A DNA stretch of 64,000 bases, taken from positions 56,258 through 120,257 of IMG/VR virus record IMGVR_UViG_3300021440_000015; one strand, 5' to 3'. Origin of the DNA: a virus. Positions 5,156-62,373 of the stretch are shown here, one piece after another. The position numbers and the translations under genes are program-made. Each line of letters opens with the position of its first letter. Positions within the stretch are counted from its first letter, which is position 1. The notes under the pieces were generated by a model. It searched no databases and had not been told where the DNA came from. It saw nothing but the letters and a program-made list of their open reading frames with translations.

Positions 5156-5176
5156 GTCTTAAATCAGGTAAGAACG

Positions 5177-5205
5177 ACAGGACCCTAGGGTCCTGTTTTT
5201 TTTTT
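5177..5205 (+). terminator. rho-independent terminator
   Basis: palindrome acaggaccctagggtcctgt followed by a T-run. Confidence 0.75.
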
Positions 5206-5245
5206 CTGTTCGCAATCTTATAGTTGTTAAACAAAGGATTGAGAA

Positions 5246-6313
5246 ATGGCAATAGCTTCAAAACGTTTTTCCATTATAGGAGAAGAGACTAATTTAAGCA
5301 TTACAGATATAAACGGTCTAGAAGATACGTTTATACGTAACGACCCTGATGCTGATTACAGTGAAATAAGTGATGAGTTAGAAGAGTTTGTCCAGGATAT
5401 GATGGACGAAGTACCTTTTGACTATGAAGATGCTATCGATGAAGCCACCAGAGCTACTAAAGATCTGATAGCTGATATGAAAGATGTGAATCTCTTAGAT
5501 GTCAAAGAGATGGATAAGAGAGTACAGGATCTGTTTCCAGATAACCCTGTAGCCAGGTCTGTGTTCACACAGATGTCTGACAAATGTAAGAGAGAGCCTC
5601 TTAGCATGCAAGGGTTGGGTAAACCTTATGACCCTAGTGTTTCTTGCAACGGTAGAAAAACCAATACTAAGAATAACAGCTGTAATGCAGGTAAGTATGG
5701 AGATATACTTAACAAGCTAACAGGTGGTGCTTATAATTCTTCTTATGAAGATTTGAACGCCATGTTGAAGAAAGCCATGGCTTTGGCTTCCTTCGGTTAC
5801 AAAATGAACATGTGTGGTGTGTTCAATGCTGTTACCAAAGACATGACCAACAAGCCTATGCTCTCCAGAGCCTCTGCTGGCCTTCTAGGCATGCTTAGCA
5901 AGTCTAGCAATAGCCTAGGTGCCCTAGACGTGATAGCGAGCTCTACAGGCTTATCTCCTTTAAGAGAATTACCTGGTGCTTTATCCATGACTCTATCCTC
6001 TTTCAAAATGCCATCTGGTATGAAGGAGTTTGATATGGCTGAGATGTCCGATCGCATGATGGGTGGAGCTGAGTTGCTAGATGGTGAGTTTGACAGAAGT
6101 GAAGATATGTTATCAATCTCTGAGTTTGGAGAATACAACGAAGATCTTTCAGATGTCATGACTGCCAGAAGAACAGCTATAGCTATCGATGAAGACAGTT
6201 TGGATTTTATACCTGATTCAGATCAAGTCTTTTTAAGTTCTGCTTATGAAGCTGCTGGAACAGATGACTTCTATAGTGATGCGGCTGGATTGGTGAGTGA
6301 GGATCTTTGGTGA
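5246..6313 (+). CDS. acidic hypothetical, possibly virion protein
   Basis: 355-aa ORF; no catalytic motif. Confidence 0.65.
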   Translation: MAIASKRFSIIGEETNLSITDINGLEDTFIRNDPDADYSEISDELEEFVQDMMDEVPFDYEDAIDEATRATKDLIADMKDVNLLDVKEMDKRVQDLFPDNPVARSVFTQMSDKCKREPLSMQGLGKPYDPSVSCNGRKTNTKNNSCNAGKYGDILNKLTGGAYNSSYEDLNAMLKKAMALASFGYKMNMCGVFNAVTKDMTNKPMLSRASAGLLGMLSKSSNSLGALDVIASSTGLSPLRELPGALSMTLSSFKMPSGMKEFDMAEMSDRMMGGAELLDGEFDRSEDMLSISEFGEYNEDLSDVMTARRTAIAIDEDSLDFIPDSDQVFLSSAYEAAGTDDFYSDAAGLVSEDLW

Positions 6314-6323
6314 AGGCTGAATA

Positions 6324-6361
6324 AAAGTTTACACAGGGGATTTCCCCTGTGTAAACTTTTT
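6324..6361. terminator. bidirectional terminator-like hairpin
   Basis: aaaagtttacacagggga / tcccctgtgtaaactttt inverted repeat. Confidence 0.7.
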
Positions 6362-6385
6362 TAGTCATATATATTCTATTTGAGC
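6350..6385 (+). promoter_or_regulatory. conserved phage promoter-like motif (TGTA-N26-TTGA)
   Basis: TGTA at 6350, agtcatatatattctatttgagc at 6363-6385; same spacing as other copies. Confidence 0.65.
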
Positions 6386-6439
6386 TATTACCAATGTTTA
6401 AGTTACACATCTGTAACACTATTGGTCAAGGAGATACTC

Positions 6440-6652
6440 ATGATTCAATTCAACAAAGAAAACATCATTGCTTTTGCAGTGGGCGCCGCAGCAATCACTG
6501 TTGTCGATGCTGCCTGTCGCGCAATCTACCGCGCGCGCAAAAACAAAAAAGCTGCAGAAGCCACAAACAAAGCAGCTGCAAAAGAAGCTGGCGAAACAGC
6601 AACCACTGCTGGCGAAACAGCAGCGGCAGCCGCCGCAGCTGCTGCAACCTAA
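6440..6652 (+). CDS. small Ala-rich protein with N-terminal hydrophobic segment
   Basis: AAGGAGATACTC-ATG RBS at 6428-6442; MIQFNKENIIAFAVGAAAITVV...; own promoter motif and terminator. Confidence 0.7.
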   Translation: MIQFNKENIIAFAVGAAAITVVDAACRAIYRARKNKKAAEATNKAAAKEAGETATTAGETAAAAAAAAAT

Positions 6653-6664
6653 GTTGCTGCGGTC

Positions 6665-6700
6665 AAAAAAGACACCCTTTTTAGGGGTGTCTTTTTTTTT
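6665..6700. terminator. bidirectional terminator
   Basis: aaaaaagacaccc / gggtgtcttttttt between convergent genes. Confidence 0.75.
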
Positions 6701-6703
6701 GCT

Positions 6704-8854
6704 TTAAACGCGTGTTGCGTCTGTGGCTCCGCTTAAAATAGATGAGTTACCAACTATACCTTCTAATATATTACCGACTAATGTCCATGACAGTGAACCA
6801 GATGTGGTTGTGTCATGTATTATAGAAGCCCATTCTGCTGAAGAAGTTAATCTATTAAGTCTGAGCATTTCTTTAGCCATTCTTAATTTAGCCTTAGGGA
6901 AGGAAAAGAACTGGCTGTAAAGATCTTGACCAGCGAGAACTGCTAAATAGTCATGCAGGATATTATCTTCATCTAAAGTCATCTCAACTGTACTTCCAAA
7001 AATACCTGATGCGGTTAAAGGCATATGCATAATAGAAGACAGATCAACAACTGTAAAGCTTACATCAAGGGCCAGTGCAGTACCTTTTGTATTGAAAGGT
7101 AGATTAGACGTGCCTCTTGTTATAGTGAGGGATTCTATCATACCTAGTTTAATTTGACATCTACCCCTGTCGTACAGCTGACAGATCATAGGGCTACCAT
7201 AAGCTGCCCTGCCTACTGACATAGGTAATGTACCAGCTAATAGCATACACAAAGGTATGTATATGTTCTGCATTTGAGACATCACGTTTCCATAAGGACT
7301 TATGAGTTTTATTTTATAACTTCCTGATGGTAAACGAGCATTTGAATTTTGCCAGTGTTTGGGTATGTCTATATAACCAGCACTAGCCAGACCCATTAAG
7401 AAATTAGAAACACCGAAAGTCACGCTGCTGAGTCCGCCAGATACCATATCGCCTATGGCTCCTGTTACACTCTTAGCCATATCAGTTATAGTAGAGCTTA
7501 ACAGATTACCATCTGCCAACGAAAAACGTATGTCCCTTATACTAGATGCTGTGCCGTTTAGCGTAGAGGATATTTGAGATTCCACACTAACGTTAGAAAA
7601 AGATTCTGTGACACTCCCAGTATTATCTACTTTAAAGATAGCAAATTGGCTACCTTGTCTAAACTCAGCATTAAAATATTCAGCAAAACCAGCTGGTGGT
7701 TCTTTAACTTGACTATTTTCTTTGGATGATGAATCTATTCTAGGGTCTAATTCAGTTTGACTAGCCTTACCATCCGGTGTTTCACTTTTGGTTTTATAGT
7801 AATCGGAACCAAGCATGAACTTACTGTTAAGCCAATTCCCAAGATTACTGAATATATCATTCTCTCCTGGGTTAATATCAGTCAAAAGAACATCACTTCT
7901 TTTTTTCAAAAAGCCTTTATAAGCTGTAAGAGTGTCTTGTTTATTGGCTTCGTATTCAGCCATAAATACTCTATTAGCTGTTCTTTGGGCTTTTGAAGCT
8001 ATAGCGAAAACGTCTATGTAGTTAGCGTCATCTTCAGAAACACCAGTAAATAGATCAGGCATCAGACCTCTGATTTCTTTAAGATATTCTTTATCTAATT
8101 CAAAAGGCTGACCACCAGCTTTTTGTGCAGTTTCATCTCTAAGAACTTTAGGCATCAATCCTCTGTTAATAGCTAAAGTATTGACAAGCACATTAACAGC
8201 TGACCAGTACATATTCATAGTTGGTTTCAATGAATAGAACTTTGTTGTAGGTCTGCCAAATATGGCAGTGGTCACATTACCTAAGAACACACCTAAAGCT
8301 ATTAACGGAAATGCTCTGGCACCAATAAAGGTACCGGCAGCCTCACCTAGTTTATAAAAAAAGCTAATACCTCTGCCTGTTTTAGCTAAAGTAGCCATAT
8401 TGCTATCATAGGCTCTTGTTAAAAAGTTTAAGAGCCCATTAAACTGCGGAACACCAAATCTTAAAAAGATAGTTTGACTAGGGTCATCAATAGCTTCTGA
8501 ATAGTATCTACCCATACCACTATTTCTTACTGACCCCACTGTGGGTTCAGTAAATACACTTTTATTTTTTCCTTGTCTTATATCAGCATATGGTGTAAAA
8601 CCAGGTCTTGCATTCATCCCTATGTTGTTTCCAAGCTTAGTGCTTGTGAATTTTAAAGACGCTGAGGTGAAGTATCTGTTATAGATATCAGCCGCATCAT
8701 CTATTTCAGAATCTGAAACTAAAAATGCCTGTTTGACCCAAGCTGCATCTCTTTGCAATCCTGAAGAATCACTTACTACCTTCTTAATAGGAAATATAGA
8801 ACCACCATCTGGTGTTTCTACTATACCTGTATCTATAGTGATGTTGTTTGCCAT
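6704..8854 (-). CDS. virion structural protein (phiKZ gp182-like, tail/baseplate region)
   Basis: 716 aa, directly downstream of the giant tail lysin; synteny-based. Confidence 0.55.
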   Translation of the reverse strand: MANNITIDTGIVETPDGGSIFPIKKVVSDSSGLQRDAAWVKQAFLVSDSEIDDAADIYNRYFTSASLKFTSTKLGNNIGMNARPGFTPYADIRQGKNKSVFTEPTVGSVRNSGMGRYYSEAIDDPSQTIFLRFGVPQFNGLLNFLTRAYDSNMATLAKTGRGISFFYKLGEAAGTFIGARAFPLIALGVFLGNVTTAIFGRPTTKFYSLKPTMNMYWSAVNVLVNTLAINRGLMPKVLRDETAQKAGGQPFELDKEYLKEIRGLMPDLFTGVSEDDANYIDVFAIASKAQRTANRVFMAEYEANKQDTLTAYKGFLKKRSDVLLTDINPGENDIFSNLGNWLNSKFMLGSDYYKTKSETPDGKASQTELDPRIDSSSKENSQVKEPPAGFAEYFNAEFRQGSQFAIFKVDNTGSVTESFSNVSVESQISSTLNGTASSIRDIRFSLADGNLLSSTITDMAKSVTGAIGDMVSGGLSSVTFGVSNFLMGLASAGYIDIPKHWQNSNARLPSGSYKIKLISPYGNVMSQMQNIYIPLCMLLAGTLPMSVGRAAYGSPMICQLYDRGRCQIKLGMIESLTITRGTSNLPFNTKGTALALDVSFTVVDLSSIMHMPLTASGIFGSTVEMTLDEDNILHDYLAVLAGQDLYSQFFSFPKAKLRMAKEMLRLNRLTSSAEWASIIHDTTTSGSLSWTLVGNILEGIVGNSSILSGATDATRV

Positions 8855-8909: not shown

Positions 8910-11900
8910 TTAAACGGTTCTTCTTCTCAGGTCCAATGCCGGATTTGGTAAAGTATCTTTCTTTTGAGCATCTGGCATCTTAGGAGAAGGTGCTGTTTGC
9001 TCAGAAGTAGGTTTCTCACTTGCTTGAGATTTACCAGCTATAAGGCTATGTATTTTACTCAAGACATCCAGCATTTGTTTTTGGACATTCAAAGAATCCC
9101 CAAGATTAGTATTCACAGTATTAAGATCCGTGTTATTATTTTTAACACTATCAGGAGCTGTTTTGACAACACCTTGTAGATCTGGGGCCTGTTGATAAGA
9201 ACTAAAAGATTTCTTCTGAGGCACATCTTGATAAGATGTATTCTGAATACCTTCTTTAGGTTTATTATTCTCAGTTGGGTTTATAGTAGCTGTAGTCGAC
9301 ACTGCTGTATTTGTAGATGTCGGACTATCATCTGTTTTAGATTTCAACTGACCAAGTGCTTTACCACCGGCTTTATTTACTTTCTTTTTAAATAGCTCGT
9401 AGATTTCCGCCAGAGTCCTCGGACGTCTTCCGTCATAGAAGATTTCTTTATTAGAACCAGCAGCCGCTGGAAATAACTGAGATCCAGGTACGTTAGGATG
9501 TGATGATAGAAATTTACTAGCACCAGCTGGTCCTAAGAAATGAGCCAGATATAAATCTAAATCATCGGGATTAGGTTTAACTTTAGATAGTGTTTCTATA
9601 TTACTTTTAACATACTCACCTGCCATTAAACTGGCTGGTATGGGATCTGTAGGACTTGCATCCGTGGATACGTTATGTTTTCTGCCATATTTTCTTAATT
9701 GTTCCAACCACGTAGCTTTGGTGAATTGGAATAAACCTAAAGCAGAAGAGTTAGGATTCTTTGCGTTTGGATTCATGTTAGATTCCAGAACAGCAAAAGT
9801 CTTAAGTAAATTAGCATCAACACCTGTTGAAGAAGCAGCCTTTTGTATAGCTGTTTGAACATCAGAGTTTTTATTATCTGTGCTATTACCAGTAGAAGGT
9901 TTATTAGAGCCATCCTCACTACCAGTTACATTACCCATAGCGTCATAAGAAGCTGCGGGTGTTTGTTTGAGAACAGTAGCTGGCGGAGCCTTAGCTGCTT
10001 TAATAGAAGATTCGTTAGCCACACCTGTAAAATTACCTAAAGCGTCGTAAGACTCAGAATTATTAAAATAATTTTCCTGAGGTTTTTCTTCTTTAGGTTT
10101 AGGTGTCATAGCTTTACCGGCTATATTGACATCATCTTCTTTTAATTGATTATTGATGGTCCCATTAGCTGTAGATTCTAGCAAAGCTTTAGCCATATCA
10201 TAGTTCCTACCAGATAGACCACCCTGCATAATAGTGCCATATCCACCACCACCGCGACCTATGCCATAATTTATAAGTTCAGATGCTTTACCAGGATCTG
10301 CTTTAGAATCTTTTAATGATAATTGAATACCAGCTGGTTCAAAATGCCATGGTTCTGAACCAACAGGTCTTGTGAACCCGTATTTTTTCATCAGACCCAT
10401 TTTATCAAGTTCGTTAAGTATAGTTCTATCAGCATCAAGTGCTAGACCGAATTCATGTAATGATTTTCCTGGTGGTGCTGACGTGCCAGGAGATCTTCTG
10501 TGTATCTCAGCTTGTTTCTGATAAGATCTAAATGCATCATTTAGAGAAACTTTCTTACCAGTTAGCTCACCATATTCCTGAGCCATAGCTAATAAATTCT
10601 TTTTAACGTCAGGGTGTAGGTTTTCTATATCCACCTCATCTTTTAAACTGATGAATTGCATTCCGGTACTACCATCACGCATGGGTCCATTAGCTAAGCC
10701 TGGTGTTTTAAAACCAGATAATGGAGTGTCGGTTTTACCTGTGTTGGTTTTATCCGATATTTTACCATCTTCACTGTCGGTGCTCACAGAAGCAGTTTTC
10801 TTATTGATTTTAGATGGTTTTATAAGATCTTCCTCAGGCTTAGTTATAAGCACTGGGGTTTTCTTCTTTTCAGCCTGTACTTCGTTTTCAGTTTTAACAG
10901 GTTCTGTTTTAACTAAATTAGAAACCTTAGCCAATAGGTTTCTAATCTCTATTTTAATAAGTTCTCGATTATCTGAAAGTTCTGCAACATCTTTAACAGG
11001 ACTCACTTTTAAATCATGAGGTCCGTCGTCGAAAGATGTCAATTCAAGATATCTTTTTAACTCAGTTGGCTTAAGTGTGTCTACCTTAGATAAAGATATC
11101 TTAGGATTGATTTTAGATAAAACTCTTAAATGGTTTATAAAAAAGAATTTGAATCTATCACTAAACCAAGCTTTTAACTTTTGGGTCTGTTCTTTATCTT
11201 CTTCATTAACACCAAAGATACCGGCTATATCTACCCATTTAAGATTGTTTGATATTTTAGGCTCGTCGCCAGATAAAGACACATTATCATCTAACATCAG
11301 AGCTTCAAGCTCCATTAGTTTATGATGATGCTGGGAATGTTCGGGACGATTACTAAAGCCGTATTGATAAGCTCTATAAAGCTCGTATTTATTAAGATTG
11401 TTTTTGGTAAGGCTTTTATAGCCTTTGTAAAGGCCGTATCCAGCACCAGCTATGACCATAGCGGCTATACCAGGCGGTGATAATAACGCACCTAATGCAG
11501 CAGTACCTACAGCAGCAACAGCTCCCACAGCACCACCTAGGGTACCGGCTGTCAAGGCTGTCAAAGCAGCTGGTAAAGCTCTTGCTATAGTAGGTAAGTT
11601 ACTGACAACGGCTTTACCGACGCCAAATATACCATTACCGACAAATTTACTTACAGAAGCAAGTCCTCTAAATACGGTACCCACACCACTTATTAAACCG
11701 CCGATACCGGTTATCAGTCCTGATAATTTTCCAAGCAGATCATTTAAAAGACCGCCTTCTCTATATTTAACAGTCATATCAGGTTTATGTTCCTGATTTG
11801 GTTCCTTATTCTGGCTGGGATCTTTATTAGATTTAAGTTTATTTAATCTATCTATCCAGGATCCGTCGCGTCTACCGCTTCCATCCTTATCATTGAATAG

Positions 11901-14900
11901 CTTTGTCTGCTGCCTGTCCTCTATTCGCTTAAGGCGCTCTTCGCGTGTTCCTTTTTCTGCCTTAACAGGTATTTTCTCACGTTTTGTTGCTACCGTTTGT
12001 GATTTTATACTAGATGAAGGTAATTTACCAGCAACACTTTTAAAAATACCTTTCAATAAAGAAGGTTTTTCATTTTTATTGCTTTGTTCTCTTCTAGTCT
12101 CTATTCGTTTAAGACGCTCTTCTCTAGTACCCTTTTCTGCCTTGGTAGGCATCTTTTCTTTTTCTTTGACAGAAGCAGGTTCTGAATTATCAGATACCAT
12201 ACTTGAGATACTACCTGAGATTTTATCTTTATAAACTTTCAAGTCTGCTGAAGCACCAGACTTATCCATAAGAGTTTTAAATTTATTATCTAATCCGGTT
12301 AACTTTACTATAGCAGCTAAACCATTTCTTCCTATGGCTTTTATCAAAGTGCCTCTTGGATCGACAAGACCTTTAGCGATATCACTGCTCTGTAGGACAA
12401 TATTACCTCTCTTGTCTATTACGTCGCCTTTTATATCTTCATATTTAGATATAGGTTTACCAGAGGCTTTGTCAAAATAATAACCAGCGTCGGTTTTATG
12501 TTTTGTCATTCTAGGTAAAAATTCACCCTTTATATACAAATCAGTACCTATTACTGTATTTTTAGTTTCTCTATATATACCTTTAACATAAGCAACTGCT
12601 AATTTCTTAGTTATGTCAAAAGCTGCTTTACCAACATAACTGGTTACTTTAGCAGCGCCGCCTGCTAGTAACCCTAAGTTTTGCATACTTGAGTTTATGT
12701 TGTCTTTATTATCGGTTATATATTTAGTTACCTTCTGAGAAGTAACAGGCGCTTTCTTAACAAAAGCTTCTGTGAGCTTTCTACCTACTCTGCCAGAACC
12801 AACAGACATACTTTTCAATATATCTTTAATGGTGAGTGTTGATTTGGATAATTCTTTAACGAAAGGTTTAGTTGGTTTTATTTCCTCAGACTGTACTAAG
12901 GATAGCTTAGCCATATCGTCTATTTTACCAGACATCGCCTCTGTCAAAGAAAGTGTGTTTTTTATATCCAGAGCGGTTTGTACTTCTGGATTTATTTTAT
13001 TTTTCGATAACTGAGCAGAATCCGCACCAGCTTTAACTTTAGAAACATTTGTGATTTTATCGTCTAGCTGCTTAATAGCCGACATAGTTATGCCGTTTAA
13101 AGAAACCAAATCGATCTTTTTACCACCAGGCGCTACAGAGTCGCCAAGGTTACGTTTCACATCTTGAGCCATAGGACCGATTTTATAATCTGTGTCTTTT
13201 AAACCTGATGTTGTTTTATATTTCCAAGAAAAGTCTGGGATATTCTTAATAGCAGTTAGAGCTTTAGACGAATCAAAAGGTTTTCTGTCTGTCTTGACAT
13301 TAACATCAGAGACAGCCTCATCACTTTCAAATTCCATCTTAGTTAGGAACTTTTTATAGTTTTTAACATTAAGTTTATATTTACCATCTGATTCAAGAGT
13401 CACCAATCCTTGTTTAATCAGTTCCTTGTCTTGCCCAGCTGATAATAGCTTGTTTATATCTGTTTGGACGTTCGGTGAATACTTTCTCATGGTAGCTATA
13501 GTTTCCATGAACTCATTTTTATTACCGATTGCGTCTCTATCTATATCAGGATTATATTTTTGTGAGAATTTATCTTTGAACCTGGTTTGCTGCTCTGGAC
13601 TAAGTTCCTTAAAACTTTCGGATCTCAGCAAAGCATCAGGACTGCTGTCACCTCTATGTTCTTTAGAGAAAGAGCTAAGTAACTTTTTAAAGGACTTTTC
13701 ATCCTCACCAGTCAGCTGACCTTCAAATAACTTCTCTGTGAAGTCTTTAGCTGTTTTCTGATTGCCGTAACTAGTATCTTTTATTTTTTTCTTTAAACTA
13801 GCTAGAATGTCTTTAGACAAAGCGGTCTCAGTTTTAAATTCCCCAGTTAGTTTATCGAAAACTGTTAAAGAGGTTTTATCACCGAGTCTGGTAGTTTGCA
13901 ATTCTCTATAGATCCTAGCTAAATATCCAGGTATTATTTCAGTTACGCTGATATTTAGATTATTATCTGTTTGCTTGTCTATAGTGGCTATATCACCAGC
14001 ATAAGCTTTTTTAACATTTATTTTACTCTGTGCATCTGAAGGTGATAGTAATCCTAAAACATCATCAGCCACTGAGTAAGCCATCCCTTTAACTAAATTG
14101 TCGCTATATAAGCCATCTTCCATGGCCTCTGAATTTCTTATTTTGCCGACATACTCGAAAGGATTAGCTATGACACCGGCTAATTTTTTACCAGTTTCGT
14201 CTAGCTTAGGGAACTTCTTATTAAGATAAGTACTCATCTTACCATATGGAAGTTTTTCCTTACCGTAGTCCATCATCATACTGGTGACAGCACCACCTGC
14301 TAACTTAAATGGCGATGATTGTCCAGCCATAGTTTCTTTAGCATTGTAGACTTCTTCCGTCATAAAGGAAGCTTGCTCAACACCTTCTTTGAATTCATCT
14401 ATTTTCTCTTTAGTATAAGAAGATATCTTTTCAAGCGTTTCATCTAGCCAATCATTATCACCAAAGAGTCGTGTATTGATTCTATTGGCTAATCTTCTTT
14501 GCATCTCTTCTTTCATTATTTCACTTTTTTGAATTTTAGTGAATTCTGGAAGAGCTGTATTTATAATGATGCCTTTAAATTGCTCAGATGATGTTTCTTG
14601 ATATCTCTTTGTCGTAAAAAGTAATTCTTTTTGAACAAAAAAGGATCTTAATTGTAACTCAAGACTTTTCTTTTGATAGGCTTGAGTTATAGTGTCATTA
14701 TAACTTGTTAATCTAGCTATATTGTCACTCATTGACGACAATACGCCAAACTCTGATTCAAATCTTTTCTTAGTTAAATTTTCTTTAACAAGATCTTCGG
14801 CGTTGTCTCTTGCTCTTAACTTTAGATCAAGCTCTTGATTAACTTTAAAAGTATCAGCTATTGTACTTTGAATAGAGCTTTCAAGAGCAGCTTCAGGGTT

Positions 14901-15329
14901 GTAACCGCTAGTTACATATTCTTCACCACCTGTAGCGTCTAGTAACTTATCGACTATTTTTCTTAAGAAGCCTTCTTCTTTAGGTACAAGCTTATCTATC
15001 TTTCTAGCTAGACCGTTTGCCTGAGGTTTTATTTCCTGGATAGATTGATCATATAGCTTAGATATACCAGTAGTAATTTTTTCACCGGCGTTAAAGATCG
15101 TGGTATATTCCTTAGGTAGTGTTCTCTCAGCTATGTCTTTTATAAAATTCACATCCTGAAGAGTATCACTTGCCTGAGAGATGACACCTTTGAAAACCTC
15201 AGATACGGGCTTTCTTTCTTTAGGGTTAGTAGCTTCTAAATCGTCAGGGAAATCAAAGTCACCAAAATCAAGTTCGTCATCAAGATCGAACTCATCTCTT
15301 TTTAATTTTTTCTTAACATCCTTAGCCAT
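8910..15329 (-). CDS. giant tail-associated lysin / tape-measure-like protein (phiKZ gp181-like) with S74-like, M15 peptidase and lytic transglycosylase domains
   Basis: 2139 aa; SLT motifs VLESNMNPNAKN..ALGLFQF..LYLAHFLG; M15 motifs FRSYQKQ..SLHEFGLALD..EPWHFE; hydrophobic Gly/Ala segments; SDVNVK..IGPMAQD..AIKQL. Confidence 0.8.
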   Translation of the reverse strand: MAKDVKKKLKRDEFDLDDELDFGDFDFPDDLEATNPKERKPVSEVFKGVISQASDTLQDVNFIKDIAERTLPKEYTTIFNAGEKITTGISKLYDQSIQEIKPQANGLARKIDKLVPKEEGFLRKIVDKLLDATGGEEYVTSGYNPEAALESSIQSTIADTFKVNQELDLKLRARDNAEDLVKENLTKKRFESEFGVLSSMSDNIARLTSYNDTITQAYQKKSLELQLRSFFVQKELLFTTKRYQETSSEQFKGIIINTALPEFTKIQKSEIMKEEMQRRLANRINTRLFGDNDWLDETLEKISSYTKEKIDEFKEGVEQASFMTEEVYNAKETMAGQSSPFKLAGGAVTSMMMDYGKEKLPYGKMSTYLNKKFPKLDETGKKLAGVIANPFEYVGKIRNSEAMEDGLYSDNLVKGMAYSVADDVLGLLSPSDAQSKINVKKAYAGDIATIDKQTDNNLNISVTEIIPGYLARIYRELQTTRLGDKTSLTVFDKLTGEFKTETALSKDILASLKKKIKDTSYGNQKTAKDFTEKLFEGQLTGEDEKSFKKLLSSFSKEHRGDSSPDALLRSESFKELSPEQQTRFKDKFSQKYNPDIDRDAIGNKNEFMETIATMRKYSPNVQTDINKLLSAGQDKELIKQGLVTLESDGKYKLNVKNYKKFLTKMEFESDEAVSDVNVKTDRKPFDSSKALTAIKNIPDFSWKYKTTSGLKDTDYKIGPMAQDVKRNLGDSVAPGGKKIDLVSLNGITMSAIKQLDDKITNVSKVKAGADSAQLSKNKINPEVQTALDIKNTLSLTEAMSGKIDDMAKLSLVQSEEIKPTKPFVKELSKSTLTIKDILKSMSVGSGRVGRKLTEAFVKKAPVTSQKVTKYITDNKDNINSSMQNLGLLAGGAAKVTSYVGKAAFDITKKLAVAYVKGIYRETKNTVIGTDLYIKGEFLPRMTKHKTDAGYYFDKASGKPISKYEDIKGDVIDKRGNIVLQSSDIAKGLVDPRGTLIKAIGRNGLAAIVKLTGLDNKFKTLMDKSGASADLKVYKDKISGSISSMVSDNSEPASVKEKEKMPTKAEKGTREERLKRIETRREQSNKNEKPSLLKGIFKSVAGKLPSSSIKSQTVATKREKIPVKAEKGTREERLKRIEDRQQTKLFNDKDGSGRRDGSWIDRLNKLKSNKDPSQNKEPNQEHKPDMTVKYREGGLLNDLLGKLSGLITGIGGLISGVGTVFRGLASVSKFVGNGIFGVGKAVVSNLPTIARALPAALTALTAGTLGGAVGAVAAVGTAALGALLSPPGIAAMVIAGAGYGLYKGYKSLTKNNLNKYELYRAYQYGFSNRPEHSQHHHKLMELEALMLDDNVSLSGDEPKISNNLKWVDIAGIFGVNEEDKEQTQKLKAWFSDRFKFFFINHLRVLSKINPKISLSKVDTLKPTELKRYLELTSFDDGPHDLKVSPVKDVAELSDNRELIKIEIRNLLAKVSNLVKTEPVKTENEVQAEKKKTPVLITKPEEDLIKPSKINKKTASVSTDSEDGKISDKTNTGKTDTPLSGFKTPGLANGPMRDGSTGMQFISLKDEVDIENLHPDVKKNLLAMAQEYGELTGKKVSLNDAFRSYQKQAEIHRRSPGTSAPPGKSLHEFGLALDADRTILNELDKMGLMKKYGFTRPVGSEPWHFEPAGIQLSLKDSKADPGKASELINYGIGRGGGGYGTIMQGGLSGRNYDMAKALLESTANGTINNQLKEDDVNIAGKAMTPKPKEEKPQENYFNNSESYDALGNFTGVANESSIKAAKAPPATVLKQTPAASYDAMGNVTGSEDGSNKPSTGNSTDNKNSDVQTAIQKAASSTGVDANLLKTFAVLESNMNPNAKNPNSSALGLFQFTKATWLEQLRKYGRKHNVSTDASPTDPIPASLMAGEYVKSNIETLSKVKPNPDDLDLYLAHFLGPAGASKFLSSHPNVPGSQLFPAAAGSNKEIFYDGRRPRTLAEIYELFKKKVNKAGGKALGQLKSKTDDSPTSTNTAVSTTATINPTENNKPKEGIQNTSYQDVPQKKSFSSYQQAPDLQGVVKTAPDSVKNNNTDLNTVNTNLGDSLNVQKQMLDVLSKIHSLIAGKSQASEKPTSEQTAPSPKMPDAQKKDTLPNPALDLRRRTV

Positions 15330-15392: not shown

Positions 15393-16862
15393 ATGGAGCT
15401 TTTAAAGAGGAAAAACATGCAAACTGCTATGCTGCCATTTAACATAGACCTGTTAAACCTTTCTGACATAGACATCAGAACCATCAGACCTGTTAAGGTT
15501 CTAGACATAACCGATGGGCTGACCAAGAACTTTCATCCGGATGGTTTATTCAGCACCCAAACCTTTGGTATGGTGGGTGAAGAAAAACGAAATAGGATGT
15601 TCTCTTATATTAATCTGAATATAAAAGTGCTACACCCTATCATCTTTAAATCTTTATACGATCTAAAGTCTCTTTATGGAGATATCATGTCGTCTAAAGC
15701 ATACGCTATATTTGACCCAGAGTTGAAAGATTTTGTAAAATCTGATCAGATAGATGGTCAAACTGGTTTCGATTTCTTCATCAAACATCTACCAGAGCTT
15801 AAATTTGAACAAAACAGTTCTGTAAGAAGACAGTTTAATATCAAGCTAGTGGATAAGTACAGACAAAAAGCTCTTATAGATAAGTTTGTCGTAATGCCTG
15901 CTGGTTTAAGAGATTACGTTTTAGACGAGAATAATCAACCTAGTGAGGATGAAATAAATACACTTTACAGAAGAGTATTATCTTTATCTAGTATTATAGG
16001 TACCGTAAACTCACAGCTAAATGCTGAATACTTCAACAACATGCGGTTTCAGCTACAGCTTGCCTGTAATGAGATTTTTGAATACATAAAAAATCTTCTT
16101 GAGGGTAAAAGCAAACTCATACTTGGTAAATGGGCAGGTAGAAAAACCTTTCACTCCACCAGAAATGTTATTACGTCCTATATCAGCAAGAATACACAGC
16201 TATTTGGTCCTAGACATGTATCATCCACGCAAACTGTAGTAGGCCTGTACCAGTATTTAAGAGCTACTCTGCCTTTATCCATAAAGAATGTGAGGGACGG
16301 TTTTATAGGAAGTGTCTTTACAGGGCCGAACTCACCTATGATACTGGTGAATAAAAAGACGCTGAAAAAAGTAGTAGTTCCTATCAATCCTAAGGAATAT
16401 GACAAATGGATGACTAATGAAGGCTTGGAGAAAGTCTTTGCTACCTATGGACAAGAGAACCTCAGACACAGTTATGTGGAGATATCTGATCACTACGCAG
16501 GTTTAATTTTTAAAGGTAAGGACGGGACTTATAAAATCTTCCAGGACATAGATGAGTTACCCGAACGTTACAGTAGAGAAGATGTGACACCTCTGACTAT
16601 AACAGAACTCATTATGTTGAGTGTCTATGGAGATTCATCTGAAACACCTTGTTTCACAACAAGATATCCTATTACAGGATATGGTAGCATATATCCCAGT
16701 TATGTATATCTTAAAACCACAGTAGAATCTGACACAAGAACCCTGCTAGATGACAAATGGGAACCTACCGAATTTGCTTGTGCTGAGTTTCCAATATACG
16801 GAAATGGGTTTTATAATTCCTTTTCAGTAGCCTCTAAAAATTTATCAAGACTTGGTGCTGAT
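15393..16862 (+). CDS. virion RNAP beta' subunit (phiKZ gp180-like), exon 1
   Basis: PDGLFS..TFG, VMPAGLRD, LLEGK..L.GKWAGRK, RYPI RpoC-like motifs; ends in LGAD, the start of the catalytic motif; start may be ATG 15417. Confidence 0.85.
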
Positions 16863-17271
16863 AAAAAGGATAAAAAATGAGTTAAACGTATTCTCATTTT
16901 GTTATCCAATTGTCCTCTTAAATAGTAATATTTAAAGAGATTTTTCTTGAATTGCTGGAACATCCTAAAGTTAATCCACCACCGCTAGATGAAAATCAAA
17001 GCCAAGGTTTGAAAACGGATTAAATGAAACAATGGGTAATCAGCAGCTAAGACGCTAAAGTTGACTCTATAGTCAACCATGCGTAAAGTTCAACGACTAA
17101 CCCTTAAGCAAGGTGTAGGAGATAGTATCTCCGAAGTGGGAAACGCCCTACTGTTTATACAGAGGGTGAAGATATAGTCTGCTCCTTTGGGAAAGCCAAA
17201 GGCGGGTGTCTTAACACACCGGGTTACTTTATGATAGGTTTGAAACCGAACGACTGTAACTGGACAATAGG
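16863..17271 (+). mobile_element. group I intron 1 (ORF-less, IA-like) in RNAP beta'
   Basis: P AATTGCTGGAA, Q AATCAGCAG, R GTTCAACGACTA, S AAGATATAGTCT; 5' splice site after GAU with TTGTC guide; ends ...ctggacaatagG. Confidence 0.9.
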
Positions 17272-17277
17272 TTCGAT
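17272..17277 (+). CDS. 6-nt micro-exon (TTC GAT = Phe-Asp) of RNAP beta', exon 2
   Basis: Lies between the terminal G of intron 1 and the start of intron 2; restores GAD-FD-GD. Confidence 0.85.
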
Positions 17278-17616
17278 AAGTAACATTGTCGCATACAGAA
17301 GAAATTCTGTAATGAAAACTTCTTGAATTGCTGGAACTCCCTTAGAGCCTAATCACCACTGCGAGGCGAAAGCTAAAGCCAAGGTTTGAAAAGATTAGGA
17401 TTGGGTTATCAGCAGCGAAGCACCGTATAGGTGAACGTTCAACGACCATCCCGTAAGGGAGTAGGATCTAGCAGATCCGAAGTGGGAAGCATCTTATCAG
17501 ATAAAGCTGAAGATGGTGATATGGTCTGTTCCTGTATGAAAGTACAGGCGGGTGTCTGAGCACACCGGGTAAAGAGTGTAGGTTTATATAACCGAGCGAC
17601 TTTACTGGACAATAAG
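17278..17616 (+). mobile_element. group I intron 2 (ORF-less, IA-like) in RNAP beta'
   Basis: P AATTGCTGGAA, Q TATCAGCAG, R GTTCAACGACCA, S GTGATATGGTCT (compensatory P7 change relative to intron 1); GAU|AA...TTGTC P1; ends ...ctggacaataaG. Confidence 0.9.
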
Positions 17617-17778
17617 GGTGATACAATGTCCTTAGTTTGCGTTATGTCTGAAGAAGCTAAAGCAGAAATCAGAAATAAGATAAACTCTAGAGATTTTTAC
17701 GTGGGTGTGAACAATAAAATGAACTTTAGTGGTTCTGATGATGTTCTTGACCTTACCTTAGCTAATATGACGGGCTAA
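17617..17778 (+). CDS. virion RNAP beta' subunit, exon 3 (GDTMSLVCVMSEEAKAEI...ANMTG*)
   Basis: 53 codons starting GGT GAT ACA ATG, matching the GD.M continuation of RpoC; stop 4 nt before next gene; spliced product ~545 aa. Confidence 0.85.
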   Translation, partial: GDTMSLVCVMSEEAKAEIRNKINSRDFYVGVNNKMNFSGSDDVLDLTLANMTG

Positions 17779-17782
17779 AAAC

Positions 17783-20700
17783 ATGCAAAAACTTTTCAAT
17801 CTTTTCTATAAAGAAGTAGGCACAAGACGGATACAGAATCTTGCCAGTCCTAAATTAATAGACTTTATAAGCTTCCCAAGAAACTCTGTATATCACCATC
17901 ACACCAGAGATGATGGAAGAGAGTTAGATGTATCTAAATTGTATTTCAAAGGTTATAAAACAAAAATAGCCGTAGACTACATAACTGAATCTATTTTCAC
18001 AGACGGCGGTGTCAGAAAAGTTAACCTGAATATAAAGAATCTCATAAGAGACTTCTTTAATACTAATAAACAATTTCAATACAGACCTGATGCTTTATCC
18101 GTAGTTAAAGATTCCGGTACTTTAATAGTAGAAAATTATAACTATCTGAATGATAGTTATAAATACATAGAAACATCTCTCACCCCCTACTATAAATTTC
18201 TAAATCATTACAGAACCATTCTGTCTAACATGGCTCTCGCCATGGATAAAAACGACAGACAACATTTCTTTTTTGTAAACACACCCAGAGAGATACCTGC
18301 TTTAAGTTTTATAGTTCAATTTTCATCAAGCAAACCTTCGACAGGGATGCTTACAATTTTCAATAATGAGGAAAAGTTACTTATTCTAGAAATGTTTAAA
18401 TGGTTAAATACAGAGAAAGCTTCTGAAAGTATTTTCTCTGTATTTAAAAAATCACATCTTTCTAGAATTAACTTTGTTTTCTTCAGCAGAACAAACAAAG
18501 CTTCTATATTGAACTTAGGTTATTTACACGGTTGGGTCAAAGGCAATGACCTTAATACAAATTCAACCGATAAAGTTCAAGTAGAAGACAACGACCTTCA
18601 AAAATTATTTCTTAAGTTTCTTTTAAGTATTAATTTTGTCTCTGATGTTGAAGAGATTACAGAACACCCGACTGATCAAGACAACTTTACCTTAAAAACA
18701 AGATCTGATTCTGAACTAGGTGATGACTTTGATGAAAACTTTGAGATCAGCCCAGAGTTCACAACATTAAAAACCACACCTGTGATAGACCTTTCACCCA
18801 GTTCGATAAATACAAGTATCCCATCCTTGGATGAAATACCTGACGATTTAGACTCAGATATATCTACAGACGAAACTATTGCCGCCTTACTGAATCAAAT
18901 TGAACAAGATTTATCTGTCACAGAGAAGAAGCAGAAAATAACTCTTTCTAAAAAAGGGATTTCTATAGGTTCAGATGGTGATCTAGTTCAAACTAAAGTC
19001 ACTAAGGAAATGACAGAAGAGCAAATTACTTCTGAAGTTTTTGGTGATAAAACATATCGGGAAGGGTTGCTGTCAGCTATTGAAGCAGCAGCCGATACTG
19101 GACGATTGTCTGCCGCAGAGTATAGAAAATTTCTAACTGCTGTGAGTGACTTTGAAAATATGCCTGATCCCTATAAAACAGGCAAGGTTATTTCAGAAGT
19201 TAACAAGGTAACCGTTAACGATATTGTCATTAACGACTCTGAAAATGAAATTGTGACATCAGAGATGATGATAGACAAAACCATGGGTGAGTCATCTTTA
19301 CAAACTTTTGACAGTAAGTACATTAAAAATGTTTTGTCAAAAGACATGCTTATGATGGTGTCCAGCATTCAGAAAGCTGGTGTTGTAATAGCCAGTTATG
19401 AAATAGAAACTGAAAGAAGCATAGCTGGAACCTATCAAGTACATGAGATTCAGTTAAAACCAGTCGATGGTGCAGGTTCTACTCTTAGGTTTAGAGTTCC
19501 GGTTCCTGATGAAAATGGTGTTATGAAAGTTGGTGGTAGTCTCTATAGCTATAGAAAACAGATAGTAGATCTACCTGTCCGTAAGATAGATCCGGTAACA
19601 GTTGCTTTATCTAGCTATTACGGTAAGACCTTTGTAGCTGTGTCTGACAAAAAAGCCAATAGTTCTTATGACTGGTTGTTAAGAAACATATCTAAATTAA
19701 GTATTTTGGATAATCCGGTCATTACTGATTTGGGCCCCGCTGATGTTTTCAACAATTTATTCAAAGCTCCTTATCTTTATAGTTTCTTATCTAAAAACTA
19801 TAAAACTTTCAAAATAAAAGGTAATACTTTTGTTTTTGATGAAAGGGAAAGATCTATAATCTACCCAAATTTCTCAAAGATAGAGAAAAACGGTAGTGTG
19901 GTTTGTGGTTTCACAGAGACATCAGAACCTATAGTCATGTCAGAGACCGAAGAGTTTCTAATCTATAGAGCTGGCGGTTATGTCAGTCTCGGTAACATAG
20001 AAACTATGTTAGGCATAGACAAGACTAAGTCACCTGTAGATTTTACTGAACTAAGGGTCTTTGCTAAAACAGTTCCTGTGGGTGTGGTTCTTGGTTATTA
20101 TATCGGTTTTGGCAAACTTTTAAAATTGATCAAGGCTGAGTACAGAGCTGTAGAAGGTAGATCTCTTAAGAATTTACAAGCAGATGAATATGTTGTAGCA
20201 TTTTCTGATACTTCTTATATCTTTACAAGAAAACAAAGAGCTGTAAGTCTCATGGTTTCTGGTTTCCTTGAGTATGAGAAGGTAATAAAACAGTTTCCTG
20301 TAGAAACATTTAACGATAAAGATGTTTACTTCAATCTTTTTGACAGTAAATCTATGTCTGCTCTGTATATAAGAGAGTTGGACATATATCGTCAGTTGTT
20401 CATAGACGGCATAACTAAGACTATCTTAGAACAAATGGGTCTGCCTGTGACTTTTGAAGGTCTTTTAGTAAAGTCTACTGAAATGCTTTGTGAATATGGT
20501 TACCCTGATACCCAGGATATGAATCACATGCGCATCAGAGGTTACGAAAGAATACCAGGTATCGTATACAGTCAATTGGCTACTGCTATACGTCAGTACA
20601 GAACAAAGAATATCTCAGGCAGATCCAAGATAGAGATGTCGCCTTTTGCTGTATGGTCTACAATAATGAAAGACCCTGCTATTAAGTTAGTGGAAGATAT

Positions 20701-20986
20701 TAACCCTATCCAGAACATGAAAGAATCTGAGATAGTCACATACGTAGGTGAAGGCGGAAGAGGAAAAGAATCTATGAACAAAGCCACTAGGGCTTTTCAT
20801 GTTTCTAATGTGGGTGTGGTATCTGAAGCCTCTGTAGATAGTGGTGACGTAGGTATAAACTTTTATCTTTCATCTAACCCTAATTTTAAGGACATGCGAG
20901 GCATAGTTAAATCTGACAAGAAGATAACTCCTACGTCTATGGTAAGTACAGCCACCATGCTTGCACCAGGTAGTAGTAAAGATGAT
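17783..20986 (+). CDS. virion RNAP beta subunit (phiKZ gp178-like), exon 1
   Basis: 1068 aa; late motifs INPIQ..KE..TYVGEGGR..RAFH.S..G..SEA.VDSGDVGIN match RpoB; ends APGSSKDD. Confidence 0.85.
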
Positions 20987-22344
20987 TAAATATATACAGT
21001 GAGGAACTGTATATGATTGAATGTAATACACCTAATTTTAAGATTCCAAAAGGTTACTCTAAATACAGAGTCTCGCCAGATGGAAAAGTTTTTTCGTTTC
21101 ATAAAGAAAAGTTTTTAAAAGGGTCTATAAATCCAGCAGGTTACACCAATATTAGATTAACATCCGATAATGGTGTAACATTAACTTGGGGATTGCATAG
21201 ACTGATAGCGTTTTGTTTTATTTGTAGTGATTATGAAAAGTTTGGTGAGTTGTATGTAAACCATAAGGACGGTAATAAACACAACAACGCACTTGAAAAT
21301 CTTGAAATCGTAACACCTAAACAGAACGTTGAACACGCAGGTCTTAACAACTTAAGTAGAAAGTGTTTACCTATTTTGGTAAGAGATGTTAAAAGTGGTT
21401 TGATATCGGAATACCCTAGCATCATTGAATGTTCCAAACATCTTGGTGTTAGTAAGGATACTGTTTTATACAGATTAAGATATCTAGGTAAGAGATTATC
21501 GCCATCTGGTCAACAATTCAAACTGAAGAAAGATAAAACACCTTGGGTTGAAATAAAAGATTTAGAAGAAGCGAAAAAACTTTACGGTAGGAACAAAAGC
21601 GTTGCGGTGAGAACATATCCAGCTATTGAAAGAATCACTATCTACAGTAGTTGTAATGAAGTATCGTCAAAATTAGGCTTAAGCGCAGGTTATGTTTCTC
21701 AGTTGTTTTACAACAAAGATCAGCCGGTTATAGATAATTTTATTCAGCTTAAACCTAATGATAATTCGATACCTTGGGTAACACACACAGATTTCATTGA
21801 AAGTTATGAAAATTTCACAGGGTGTAAAGTCATAACTGTTTGGAACTGTTTGACAGACGAAAGAAAAATATATAAGTCTGTCACAAGTTGCGCTAGTGAT
21901 AATGGTATTAAAATAACTACCTTACATTGGCGTTTAAACCAAGAAGCAAAGGTTCACCGTGACGGTAGAAAGTATGTGTATTACAGTCAGTTAAGTCCTT
22001 TGGAAAAGAAACTTTTCAAAGAATCTCTTTGAATTGCTGGGAACTCTTGTTAGATCACTGAACCACTGCGAGGCGAAAGCCAAAGCCAAGGTTTGAAAAT
22101 CAGTGAGTAGAGACAATCAGCAGCTAAGACGCTAAAGTTGATTCTGATCAACCATGCGTAAAGTTCAACGACTAAGGTTTTATCAACCTGTAGGGTACCT
22201 AGCGGTATTCGAAGCGGAGAGCACCCTACTGTATACAGAGGGTGAAGATATAGTCTGTTCCTGTATGAGAATATAGGCGGGTGTCTGAGCACACCGGGTA
22301 AAGAGGGTAAGCTGTGAAGCTGAGCGACTTTACTGGACAGTAAG
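20987..22344 (+). mobile_element. group I intron 3 carrying an HNH endonuclease in its 5' (P1) loop
   Basis: P AATTGCTGGGAA, Q AATCAGCAG, R GTTCAACGACTA, S AAGATATAGTCT; ends ...ctggacagtaaG; splicing joins KDD|GKRVNFVQIQMSH in frame (RpoB HDDANR-equivalent). Confidence 0.9.
21013..22032 (+). CDS. intron-encoded HNH homing endonuclease (NUMOD4-like N-terminus, NUMOD1-like repeats)
   Basis: YRVSPDGKVFS; LHRLIA; VNHKDGNKHNNALENLEIVTPKQNVEHA; three Y.S..E/C.S..LG repeats. Confidence 0.9.
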   Translation: MIECNTPNFKIPKGYSKYRVSPDGKVFSFHKEKFLKGSINPAGYTNIRLTSDNGVTLTWGLHRLIAFCFICSDYEKFGELYVNHKDGNKHNNALENLEIVTPKQNVEHAGLNNLSRKCLPILVRDVKSGLISEYPSIIECSKHLGVSKDTVLYRLRYLGKRLSPSGQQFKLKKDKTPWVEIKDLEEAKKLYGRNKSVAVRTYPAIERITIYSSCNEVSSKLGLSAGYVSQLFYNKDQPVIDNFIQLKPNDNSIPWVTHTDFIESYENFTGCKVITVWNCLTDERKIYKSVTSCASDNGIKITTLHWRLNQEAKVHRDGRKYVYYSQLSPLEKKLFKESL

Positions 22345-23460
22345 GGAAAACGCGTCAACTTTGTCCAAATACAGATGTCTCATTTAATCGCGTGTAAAGA
22401 TTATCATCAACCTATCGTAAGAACAGGTTATGAGTATGTAGTACCTAATAGAACATCTGAAATATTTGCCTATAATGCCAAAGACGACGGTGAGGTTATC
22501 TCATTGGCTAAAACTGGTTTGATCGTCAAGTATAAAAACGGCGAGCAAAAAGGCATACAGCTTGGTCGTATTTACGGAAAAGCTGAAGGTAGTGTATACC
22601 CACATGACATTGTTTCTAGTGTTAAACTCGGTGATAAGTTTATCAAAGGTGATAACATAGCTTATAATACAGGTTTCTTTGAGAAAGATTTACTTGATCC
22701 AAAAAGAGTAGTTATGAAAAACTCTATGACGATCAAAGTAGCTCTGATGGAAACCAACCAGACTCACGAAGATAGTTGCTCTATTTCTAATAGAGTGTCT
22801 TTAATGTCTAGTGCCAAAACCACAAAAATGAAATCGGTCACTGTTTCCTTTAAACAAAACTTGCACAATGTTGCATCTTTTGGACAAAGAATAAAACCGA
22901 ATGATATTTTGATGGTAATGGAAGATGAAATTACTTCCACAGGTCATTTTGATGAAGAATCACTTTCACTATTAGCCGACTTATCTAAACAGTCTATTAA
23001 GTCTAAATACGACGGGGTTTTAGATAGAATAGAAGTTTACTATCACGGTAGTAAAGAAGATATGAGTCCTTCTTTAAGAGCACTTGCTGATAAAAGTGAT
23101 CAGGTATTAGAAACTATATGTAAATCGACTAACTCGCCTGTAGTCACGGGTGAAGTTAACGATGAATACAGAGTAGCTGGTTCTCGTCTGAGTTTAGACA
23201 AAGCTGAGATAAAACTTTATATAACCATGGATACAATCAGCGGTACAGGTGATAAACTTGTGTTCGCTAATCAAATGAAGAGTGTGGTGGGTGAGGTAAT
23301 GGATTATGATGTAAAGACAGAATCCGGTGAGAGAGTAGATGCCATATTTGGTTTTCGCTCAATCATGGCTCGTGTAGTGACATCACCTATAATCATAGGT
23401 ACCACAACCACCTTACTTAAAAAAGTTGCTGAAAAAGCTGTCAAAGTTTACAAAGGTTAA
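22345..23460 (+). CDS. virion RNAP beta subunit, exon 2
   Basis: In frame with ORF 22375-23460; PIVRTGYE, THEDSCSIS, GDKLVFANQMKSVVG RpoB motifs; spliced product ~1439 aa. Confidence 0.85.
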   Translation, partial: GKRVNFVQIQMSHLIACKDYHQPIVRTGYEYVVPNRTSEIFAYNAKDDGEVISLAKTGLIVKYKNGEQKGIQLGRIYGKAEGSVYPHDIVSSVKLGDKFIKGDNIAYNTGFFEKDLLDPKRVVMKNSMTIKVALMETNQTHEDSCSISNRVSLMSSAKTTKMKSVTVSFKQNLHNVASFGQRIKPNDILMVMEDEITSTGHFDEESLSLLADLSKQSIKSKYDGVLDRIEVYYHGSKEDMSPSLRALADKSDQVLETICKSTNSPVVTGEVNDEYRVAGSRLSLDKAEIKLYITMDTISGTGDKLVFANQMKSVVGEVMDYDVKTESGERVDAIFGFRSIMARVVTSPIIIGTTTTLLKKVAEKAVKVYKG

Positions 23461-62284: not shown

Positions 62285-62373
62285 ACCAGGATGCCCAAAT
62301 AGGTAAAGGGAACGGATTTAAAATCCGTCGACTGGAGACGGTCTTACGGGTTCGAGTCCCGTTCCTGGTACCA
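62285..62373 (+). tRNA. tRNA-Leu (UAA) with encoded CCA
   Basis: Acceptor accagga/tcctggt-A-CCA; anticodon arm acgga-tttaaaa-tccgt; long variable arm; T arm acggg-ttcgagt-cccgt. Confidence 0.92.

Follow-up and report, generated by a model that had tools for sequence, protein, structure and literature searches.

A six-nucleotide exon between two predicted group I introns in the catalytic motif of a jumbo-phage virion RNA polymerase gene

Intron-bearing polymerase genes and very short exons

Group I introns occur in a number of jumbo-phage genes, including those for the virion RNA polymerase (PMC12908238, PMC12880540, PMC11620839, PMC10914365, PMC11512511). For phiKZ, PMC10914365 and PMC11512511 relate that Mesyanzhinov (2002) and Ceyssens (2014) predicted a group I intron of gp180 with an HNH endonuclease, gp179. 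Here we analyse the corresponding gene in a stretch of 64,000 nucleotides (nt), called the window, from the IMG/VR record IMGVR_UViG_3300021440_000015 (record positions 56,258-120,257; all coordinates below are window positions), which comes from a giant freshwater phage of the jumbo type. The gene is identified below, by similarity and synteny, as a phiKZ gp180-type gene encoding the virion RNA polymerase's N-terminal beta' subunit. Its active-site motif, D-F-D-G-D, is most probably put together from three exons, and the middle one, TTCGAT, is only 6 nt long and lies between two group I introns.

The phiKZ locus resembles that of the window in that the same gene, in the same flanking order, is interrupted at the same site, after the codon for the first aspartate (Asp 1) of the motif; as mapped here, phiKZ gp180 ends in GAD and its exon resumes with TTCGACGGGGAC. 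The phiKZ gene has one intron at this site, which is 1443 nt long, carries the endonuclease gene gp179 and scores 92 bits with RF00028, the group I intron model of Rfam, whereas the window has two introns devoid of open reading frames (ORFs) and a 6-nt exon between them. The parts of PMC10914365 and PMC11512511 that deal with the phiKZ intron name it without placing it in the DFDGD motif. In the phiKZ record (NC_004629), gp180 is annotated to G-A-D, and its second exon, which starts F-D-G-D-T-V-S at ~186345-186178, bears no annotated feature.

A precedent for the tandem arrangement is orf142 of the Staphylococcus phage Twort (Landthaler and Shub 1999; PMC10136302, PMC11878797), in which three group I introns and a 23-nt exon were described and exon skipping was detected by reverse transcription polymerase chain reaction. 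Twort and the window have in common that a tiny exon stands between group I introns arranged in tandem and similar to each other, with the risk that the outer exons are joined directly. Judged by this Twort-type criterion of similar tandem introns around a short exon, the window introns are 68% identical, have near-identical 3' tails and enclose 6 nt. However, the Twort exon has 23 nt and belongs to a tail tube gene, whereas the exon in the window has 6 nt, lies wholly within one P1 stem and encodes part of an enzyme active site. In addition, skipping was observed in Twort, whereas it is a conjecture for the window.

The gp210 intron of PhiPA3, which lies in the virion RNA polymerase gene gp211/209 (PMC11620839), is likewise a group I intron that interrupts the virion polymerase gene of a jumbo phage where it is conserved and rich in Asp, and a third intron of the window, in the next gene, is found at the equivalent codon. 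The PhiPA3 case differs in that it concerns another subunit and a single intron with its own endonuclease, and it has no micro-exon. The same paper offers an explanation of why co-infecting phages compete at such sites, and competition of this kind has been demonstrated by experiment for PhiPA3 and phiKZ. Very short exons have been reported from other sources as well, such as exons of 1 nt and 18 nt from the mitochondria of fungi and an exon of 1 nt in the cox1 gene of a placozoan (PMC12308204), a 34-nt exon between two introns in the 23S rRNA of Coxiella (PMC10136302) and a 'small exon' mentioned for phiNIT1 (PMC11878797). Like the exon in the window, these are very short exons that result from independent neighbouring insertions and are often missed by annotation. 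However, the mitochondrial cases are organellar, with the 1-nt exons partly flanked by group II introns, and none of the organellar, Coxiella and phiNIT1 cases lies in the active site of a phage polymerase.

The original prediction for this locus held that no equivalent had been described. This is true in part: the literature outside subscription journals and supplements yielded no 6-nt phage exon between group I introns and no link between DFDGD and a group I intron, but the gp180 intron of phiKZ and the tandem introns and skipping of Twort are already in print. The micro-exon appears to be the shortest exon yet found between group I introns in a phage. While tandem group I introns and active-site introns are known, a 6-nt exon bearing the middle catalytic Asp is new, and the same applies to its 9-nt and 12-nt counterparts, the hot spot of five insertion sites and the signs of recent cassette transfer described below.

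The split motif, its introns and their splice-site pairing

Exon 1 occupies 15393..16862 on the plus strand and is recognized by its ORF, its match to the family profile phrog_2986 and its similarity to phiKZ gp180; an ATG at 15417 may be the true start. It terminates in ...LGA-D, in the frame CTT GGT GCT GAT, with Asp 1 encoded by GAT at 16860-62. The called ORF (15393..16880) continues from ...RLGAD through five more codons (KKDKK) to a stop at 16878-80. On the same strand follow intron 1 (16863..17271, 409 nt) at site 1, directly after the Asp-1 codon, the micro-exon TTCGAT (17272..17277), which encodes Phe-Asp and so supplies Asp 2, and intron 2 (17278..17616, 339 nt) at site 2, directly after the Asp-2 codon. 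Exon 3 (17617..17778, also plus strand) opens with GGT GAT ACA ATG at 17617, has Asp 3 in the GAT at 17620-22 and runs in frame as GDTM... to the stop at 17776-78. Removing both introns gives D-F-D-G-D, with one Asp on each of the three exons. The coordinates, letters and insert lengths of 409 and 339 nt given in the original prediction all hold, and the spliced motif that it proposed agrees both with the homologues and with a gap in the family profile.

This gap is seen in phrog_2986, a PHROG family profile of 539 positions. Exon 1 matches positions 1-484 (E 6.7e-167) and exon 3 matches positions 487-538 (E 1.5e-7), and exactly two residues, positions 485-486, are left unmatched between the outer exons. 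By simple arithmetic, 4 of the 4096 possible hexamers read TTYGAY and 12 of the 4096 encode [F/Y/H]-D, and the frame also has to be kept. Because only 4 in 4096 hexamers are TTYGAY, TTCGAT is not a chance leftover. The D-x-D-G-D loop, which is contiguous in 64 of 120 homologues, exists here only if both introns are excised as proposed. Other junctions were tried, with the 3' site of intron 1 moved by one base or with exon 1 ending in GCU, and none preserved frame and motif. An intein, ribosomal bypass and frameshift were ruled out, as both inserts are full-length group I matches.

It is conceivable that the two inserts form a composite tandem twintron that is removed as a unit, with Phe-Asp supplied otherwise, or that separate polypeptides work without splicing. 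Tandem group I modules in fungal mitochondria are spliced as one unit (PMC12308204), and gene callers report two separate ORFs at this locus. However, removal as a unit would delete Asp 2, the profile requires exactly the two residues encoded by the hexamer, other phages have one or the other intron by itself, inserted at precisely the same position, and the exon 3 codons upstream of the ATG are under coding selection. We give very little credence to either version.

Both inserts had been taken for group I introns, and the covariance-model search bears this out, with 78-80 bits for each over the full model. RF00028 has model positions 1-253 and a gathering score of 50 bits. Intron 1 matches the whole model (1-253) at 16882-17201 with 78.1 bits, or at 16880-17201 with 78.9 bits in a closer search, and intron 2 matches it, again over 1-253, at 17268-17548 with 79.9 bits. 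No ORF of at least 40 amino acids (aa) was found on the plus strand of intron 1, and intron 2 has no endonuclease ORF, only a 42-aa ORF starting with GTG. The expected U.G pair at the 5' sites and terminal G of the introns are present at all four junctions (U16862.G16912, U17277.G17288, G17271 and G17616), and the motif UUGUC can be read in both guides, as TTGTC at 16910-14 and 17286-90, as the original prediction had stated.

In intron 1, the guide TTGTC at 16910-14 adjoins P2, and P1 consists of G16860-C16914, A16861-U16913 and U16862.G16912. Thus GAU of exon 1 is paired with GUC (16912-14) through 3 base pairs (bp). P1 is extended by a long hairpin, and UUCGAU does not enter into a P10. The extension shows compensating changes between the window and L002, a related IMG/VR contig, on visual reading. 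Of the 17 site-1 introns listed, 13 have the sequence GUCC before P2, and in none of the site-1 introns inspected can the 5' neighbour of the guide pair with the U that opens the 3' exon (visual reading). In comparison, the guide of intron 2 (17284-17293) forms a P1 of C17274-G17291, G17275-C17290, A17276-U17289 and U17277.G17288, as well as a P10 between GGUG of exon 3 (17617-20) and CAUU (17284-87), and all six bases of the micro-exon fall within the P1 stem. Among the site-2 introns of eight phage sequences, the eight P1/P10 pairs are formed in 89% of the cells, compared to 22-66% in slid controls, and the U.G, A-U and G-C pairs of P1 are kept in all eight. The family fold of the site-2 introns, likewise from eight sequences, places intron 2 in a structure in which 29 of 70 predicted pairs have changed on both sides in a compensatory manner.

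The guides are also complementary to GGACA(AU) near the 3' end of their own introns (16908-16915/17262-17271 and 17285-17290/17607-17612). In the site-2 introns this pairing (alignment A3, columns 77-80/448-451) is invariant in 8 of 8 sequences, with no covariation, and other lineages show it in a different register. It might compete with P1 or help to position the 3' splice site.

We consider it highly probable that two separate ORF-less group I introns flank a true 6-nt exon within the catalytic loop, and that both are excised to produce an active subunit; comparison speaks strongly for two splicing events being necessary. Intron 1 would hold the end of exon 1 through its 3-bp GAU/GUC P1, with no P10 downstream, and intron 2 would take the micro-exon as the 5' strand of its own P1 (CGAU/GUCG) and pair GGUG of exon 3 in P10. 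Because the recognition elements of the two introns do not overlap, an exon of 6 nt would be workable. The active subunit would need accurate removal of both introns, most likely in the order 5' to 3' as the RNA is made. The arrangement probably originated by independent colonisation of adjacent sites in a hot spot of introns and homing endonucleases. If this is correct, six bases, just those required by one ribozyme as substrate for its P1, can suffice for an exon, and an essential catalytic loop can be put together from three exons by RNA catalysis alone. The locus would then be a natural test case for the way in which neighbouring ribozymes avoid cross-reaction, for the minimal exon need of an intron (a 3-bp P1 and no P10) and for the co-transcriptional order of splicing.

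The likeness of the two introns has also suggested that skipping could serve as a regulatory gate. Some transcripts would join exon 1 to exon 3, in frame but 6 nt shorter and without Phe and Asp 2, and the skipped subunit would tune or poison the assembly of the virion polymerase. Both 5' sites carry GAU and both guides UUGUC, and the guide of intron 1 can form 3 bp with the end of exon 1 and just as many with that of the micro-exon. Introns 1 and 2 are near-identical over their last ~23 nt, the cores share long identical stretches, and overall identity is 68%. There are precedents in Twort with its 23-nt exon, in an artificial Tetrahymena pair and in SIOphi (PMC10136302, PMC11878797). However, skipping would leave the protein short of a catalytic Asp, the gene evidently works without such a gate in relatives that have a single intron or no intron, and the two intron tails of the related contig L001 differ from each other. 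The gate is speculation, its whole basis being the similarity of guides and tails and the precedents of Twort and SIOphi, and we regard it as improbable.

Relatives, selection and movement of the introns

The protein search returned 1816 hits at E <=0.001, and the motif was read in the best 120 of the 1816. Sixty-four of these have D-[F/Y/H]-D-G-D unbroken, in accordance with the product expected from alignment with intron-less homologues; 55 are interrupted within the five codons, and one is a fragment that could not be placed. The breaks fall after Asp 1 in 25 cases (window included), after Phe in 1, after Asp 2 in 26, after Gly in 2 and after Asp 3 in 1. Since 55 of the best 120 homologues are called as truncated inside the active site, virion polymerase genes of jumbo phages are systematically mis-annotated. 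The expectation that gene callers would report a truncated polymerase was thus justified, not only for the window, in which the called protein (P0001) has 487 aa, but also for these homologues and for phiKZ gp180 with its end at GAD. One homologue, P0004, is 78% identical, ends in ...GADFD and may, to judge from this terminus, come from a close relative that has intron 2 but not intron 1.

The same two introns with an identical TTCGAT were found in three IMG/VR contigs, L001, L002 and L003, whose exon 1 proteins are ~80% identical and each of which has two RF00028 matches. A degenerate 18-mer scan of IMG/VR, covering the tail of intron 1, the micro-exon and the start of intron 2, gave 53 stretches and no cassette beyond the three known ones; the other 50 have no resemblance to the introns and are taken as chance matches. 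When the cassette was searched against phages with blastn, 86 records were matched, none of them over at least 80% of the query, and the matches were to the intron cores only. All the cassette contigs come from metagenomes, and the cassette was not found in any cultured phage.

Two samples of loci were used to place the introns of other relatives. Among 40 IMG/VR loci gathered with the profile of the family, 30 are uninterrupted and 10 interrupted. Three of the latter have the 6-nt cassette, two (L016 and L041) are interrupted both behind Asp 1 and behind Asp 3, with a 12-nt exon for F-D-G-D in the middle, three are interrupted at site 1 only and one at site 2 only, and the remaining one has an intron inside the Phe codon that carries a 437-aa ORF. 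The metagenome sample comprised 59 loci, of which 55 were assessed and four (L074, L078, L081 and L105) left out, the match ending before the motif. Here 29 loci are uninterrupted, 9 have an intron at site 1 only, and 6 at site 2 only, with 1 more incomplete; breaks were also seen after Asp 3 in three (one complete), after Gly in one and inside the Phe codon in one, and three loci are cut by a contig end. The last two are double: L088 has a 12-nt exon, and in L071 one intron follows Asp 1 and another follows Gly, with a 9-nt exon, TTTGACGGT, between them. Together with L016 and L041, these two loci indicate that the principle is a recurrent one. The two samples are not independent, because several contigs are identical (e.g. 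L067/L038, L090/L034, L094/L010 and L102/L017). Some inserts, namely those of L017 (419 nt), L054, PDCC-1 and CF8 and the first of the two in L016 (635 nt), are sub-threshold for RF00028 and were classed as introns by position and visible core motifs only.

The junctions of the two introns can be read from loci that have one of them. At the site-1-only loci (L012, L017, L037, phiKZ and the nine from the metagenome sample), TTCGAY or TACGAY, followed by GGN-GAY, comes directly after the last G of the intron. At the site-2-only loci (L047, the six from the metagenome sample and phage EL, whose intron has an annotated HNH ORF), [F/Y/H]-D stands directly before the intron, and the DNA immediately 5' of it reads GAY-TWC-GAT. 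All 5' sites of the relatives follow a U, and the introns extracted end in G in 14 of 14 cases. In cultured phages the sites are occupied one at a time, with site 1 used in phiKZ, site 2 in EL, the position after the Gly codon in CF8 and site 3 in VP4B. Over all loci, five insertion sites were found in the 15-nt motif.

In Photobacterium phage PDCC-1 (MN562221, 4900-6700), a relative of VP4B, exon 1 ends in ...R-L-G-G-D and the gene resumes with Q-L-N-S, which in VP4B follows D-Y-D-G-D. No 12-nt stretch for Y/F-D-G-D was found between these two points within 4900-6700, and the gap could be due to a deletion, to faulty assembly or to some arrangement that is hidden from view. The motif introns of L029/L093, L054, L071, L086, L088, L100 and L103 contain ORFs of 335-531 aa whose N-termini have a theme in common (...F..IP..N.Y.I...G). 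Their products are probably homing endonucleases that belong to several lineages and have these 15 nt as their shared target.

Exon 3 was compared among the window, L002 and L001. The proportion of synonymous differences (pS) is 0.65-0.93 vs a proportion of nonsynonymous differences (pN) of 0.08-0.14, and by this measure exon 3 is under purifying selection. The codons GGT-GAY-ACR, which lie upstream of the only ATG of the exon, show synonymous changes; because of this, the frame seems to be read from the 3' splice site onward. Exactly one phrog_2986 gene is present within the 120-kilobase (kb) record.

These data bear on the idea of a decaying or non-functional gene, in which accurate splicing has been lost by one intron or by both, and TTCGAT is a mere remnant. 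The metagenomic origin of all cassette contigs, none of them from a cultured phage, the weak P1 of intron 1 and the incomplete genome record would be compatible with decay. It is difficult, however, to reconcile decay with the strong purifying selection on exons 1 and 3, the intact cores of both ribozymes in four contigs, a micro-exon that is identical in all four and the single copy of the family in the record. Moreover, site-1 introns, that of cultured phiKZ included, as a rule have a 3-bp P1 and no P10. We believe that decay is very unlikely.

Several observations nevertheless weigh against the excision of two separate introns around a true micro-exon. Among the 20 runs listed, 3 are RNA (X18, X19 and X20, with small shares of 0.05-0.08), and no contig of these three spans a junction in either its spliced or its unspliced form; no joints were reported in these runs. 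Within intron 1, the RNA contigs cover 17030-17263 and 16957-17222, and others were placed at 17518-17570 (in intron 2, with loose ends) and at 17766-17936. For phiKZ, a long-read transcriptome gave no splicing evidence for the predicted introns, including that of gp179, under the conditions tested, according to the pertinent part of PMC10914365. The P1 of intron 1 has only 3 bp with the exon and is not backed by a P10. Because P1 has only 3 bp, a simple guide search is ambiguous for site-1 introns, and the guide was placed by its adjacency to P2 and by its conservation in relatives. The P1 and P10 of site-2 introns are without two-sided covariation, because coding fixes the letters of the exons. 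Finally, the record is estimated to be 44% complete, and a second copy of the gene is possible elsewhere.

The DNA run X1 was also mapped. The single apparent joint in its DNA connects 17224 with 17594 through 22 letters of different sequence; it matches the intron 3 tail and was read as a contig of that paralogous intron.

As to the origin of the two introns, a quick and rough tree groups intron 2 with the site-2 introns of distant phages (~71% identity), and intron 1 with intron 3 of the window, not with other site-1 introns. This grouping, together with the 68% identity between introns 1 and 2, therefore suggests separate insertions and not a local duplication, as far as a rough tree can indicate. 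The window and L002 are 74% identical in exon 1 (65% in its last 60 nt) and, in exon 3, 87% identical over the first 45 nt and 75% over the rest. In comparison, intron 1 is 96% and intron 2 is 98% identical between the two. Because the introns are 96-98% identical and the exons 74-75%, both introns would have been transferred recently between diverged phages; because they are only 6 nt apart, they have probably moved together. We infer from these identities that a two-intron cassette moved recently between diverged phages.

The five sites in 15 nt and the contrast between intron and exon identity fit a situation in which the active-site codons of the virion polymerase are contested by mobile introns in co-infection. 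Perhaps the 15 nt of D-F-D-G-D are a battlefield of introns and homing endonucleases, where the stacked ORF-less pair abolishes the targets of two endonuclease lineages at a stroke and provides immunity in co-infection, introns with a minimal GUC guide settle after any GAU, the cassette moves as one unit and occasional skipping leads to a dead but assembly-competent subunit. We offer this larger picture tentatively, as a possibility that is more doubtful than not.

Gene identity and neighbouring features

Exon 1 has 35% identity with phiKZ gp180 (tblastn E 4e-95) and exon 3 matches it at E 3e-8 by tblastn, while the two halves of the next gene match phiKZ gp178 (tblastn E 2e-113 and 1e-84). 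Gene order and orientation are as in phiKZ gp181 / gp180 (with gp179) / gp178. By these similarities, the interrupted gene is the phiKZ gp180-type N-terminal subunit of virion RNA polymerase beta', and its original assignment to the virion enzyme fits the synteny with gp181-gp180-gp178. The phiKZ record labels gp180 and gp178 'structural head protein', and gp178 is termed a virion polymerase subunit in PMC11620839. A Pfam search of exon 1 gave sub-threshold matches only (RNA_pol_Rpb1_1, 16.6 bits vs a cut-off of 39.7), phmmer found 0 matches of exon 1 among solved structures, and megablast of the gene against phages gave no match.

The next gene, of the phiKZ gp178 type and likewise predicted to encode a virion RNA polymerase subunit, lies at 17783..23460 on the plus strand (phrog_3148; exon 1 17783-20986, exon 2 22345-23460). 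It contains intron 3, a group I intron at 20987-22344 (plus strand; RF00028, 87.6 bits at 21972-22277), inside which an ORF at 21013-22032 on the same strand encodes an HNH/NUMOD endonuclease (Pfam HNH_3, NUMOD4 and NUMOD1). The intron splits the gene after ...K-D-D, again behind GAU, and its flanks are contiguous in phiKZ gp178. The junction corresponds to phiKZ gp178 residue 1072, which is the residue given for the site of the PhiPA3 gp210 intron in PMC11620839.

The 120-kb record has five group I introns in total. Outside the window, RF00028 matches the record at 6778-7068 (plus strand, 69.1 bits) and at 10262-10563 (minus strand, 85 bits). A 2139-aa ORF at 8910-15329 on the minus strand of the window lies where phiKZ has gp181, its tail-associated endolysin, and is oriented in the same way. 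A tRNA gene was found at 62285-62370 on the plus strand (RF00005, 59.1 bits).

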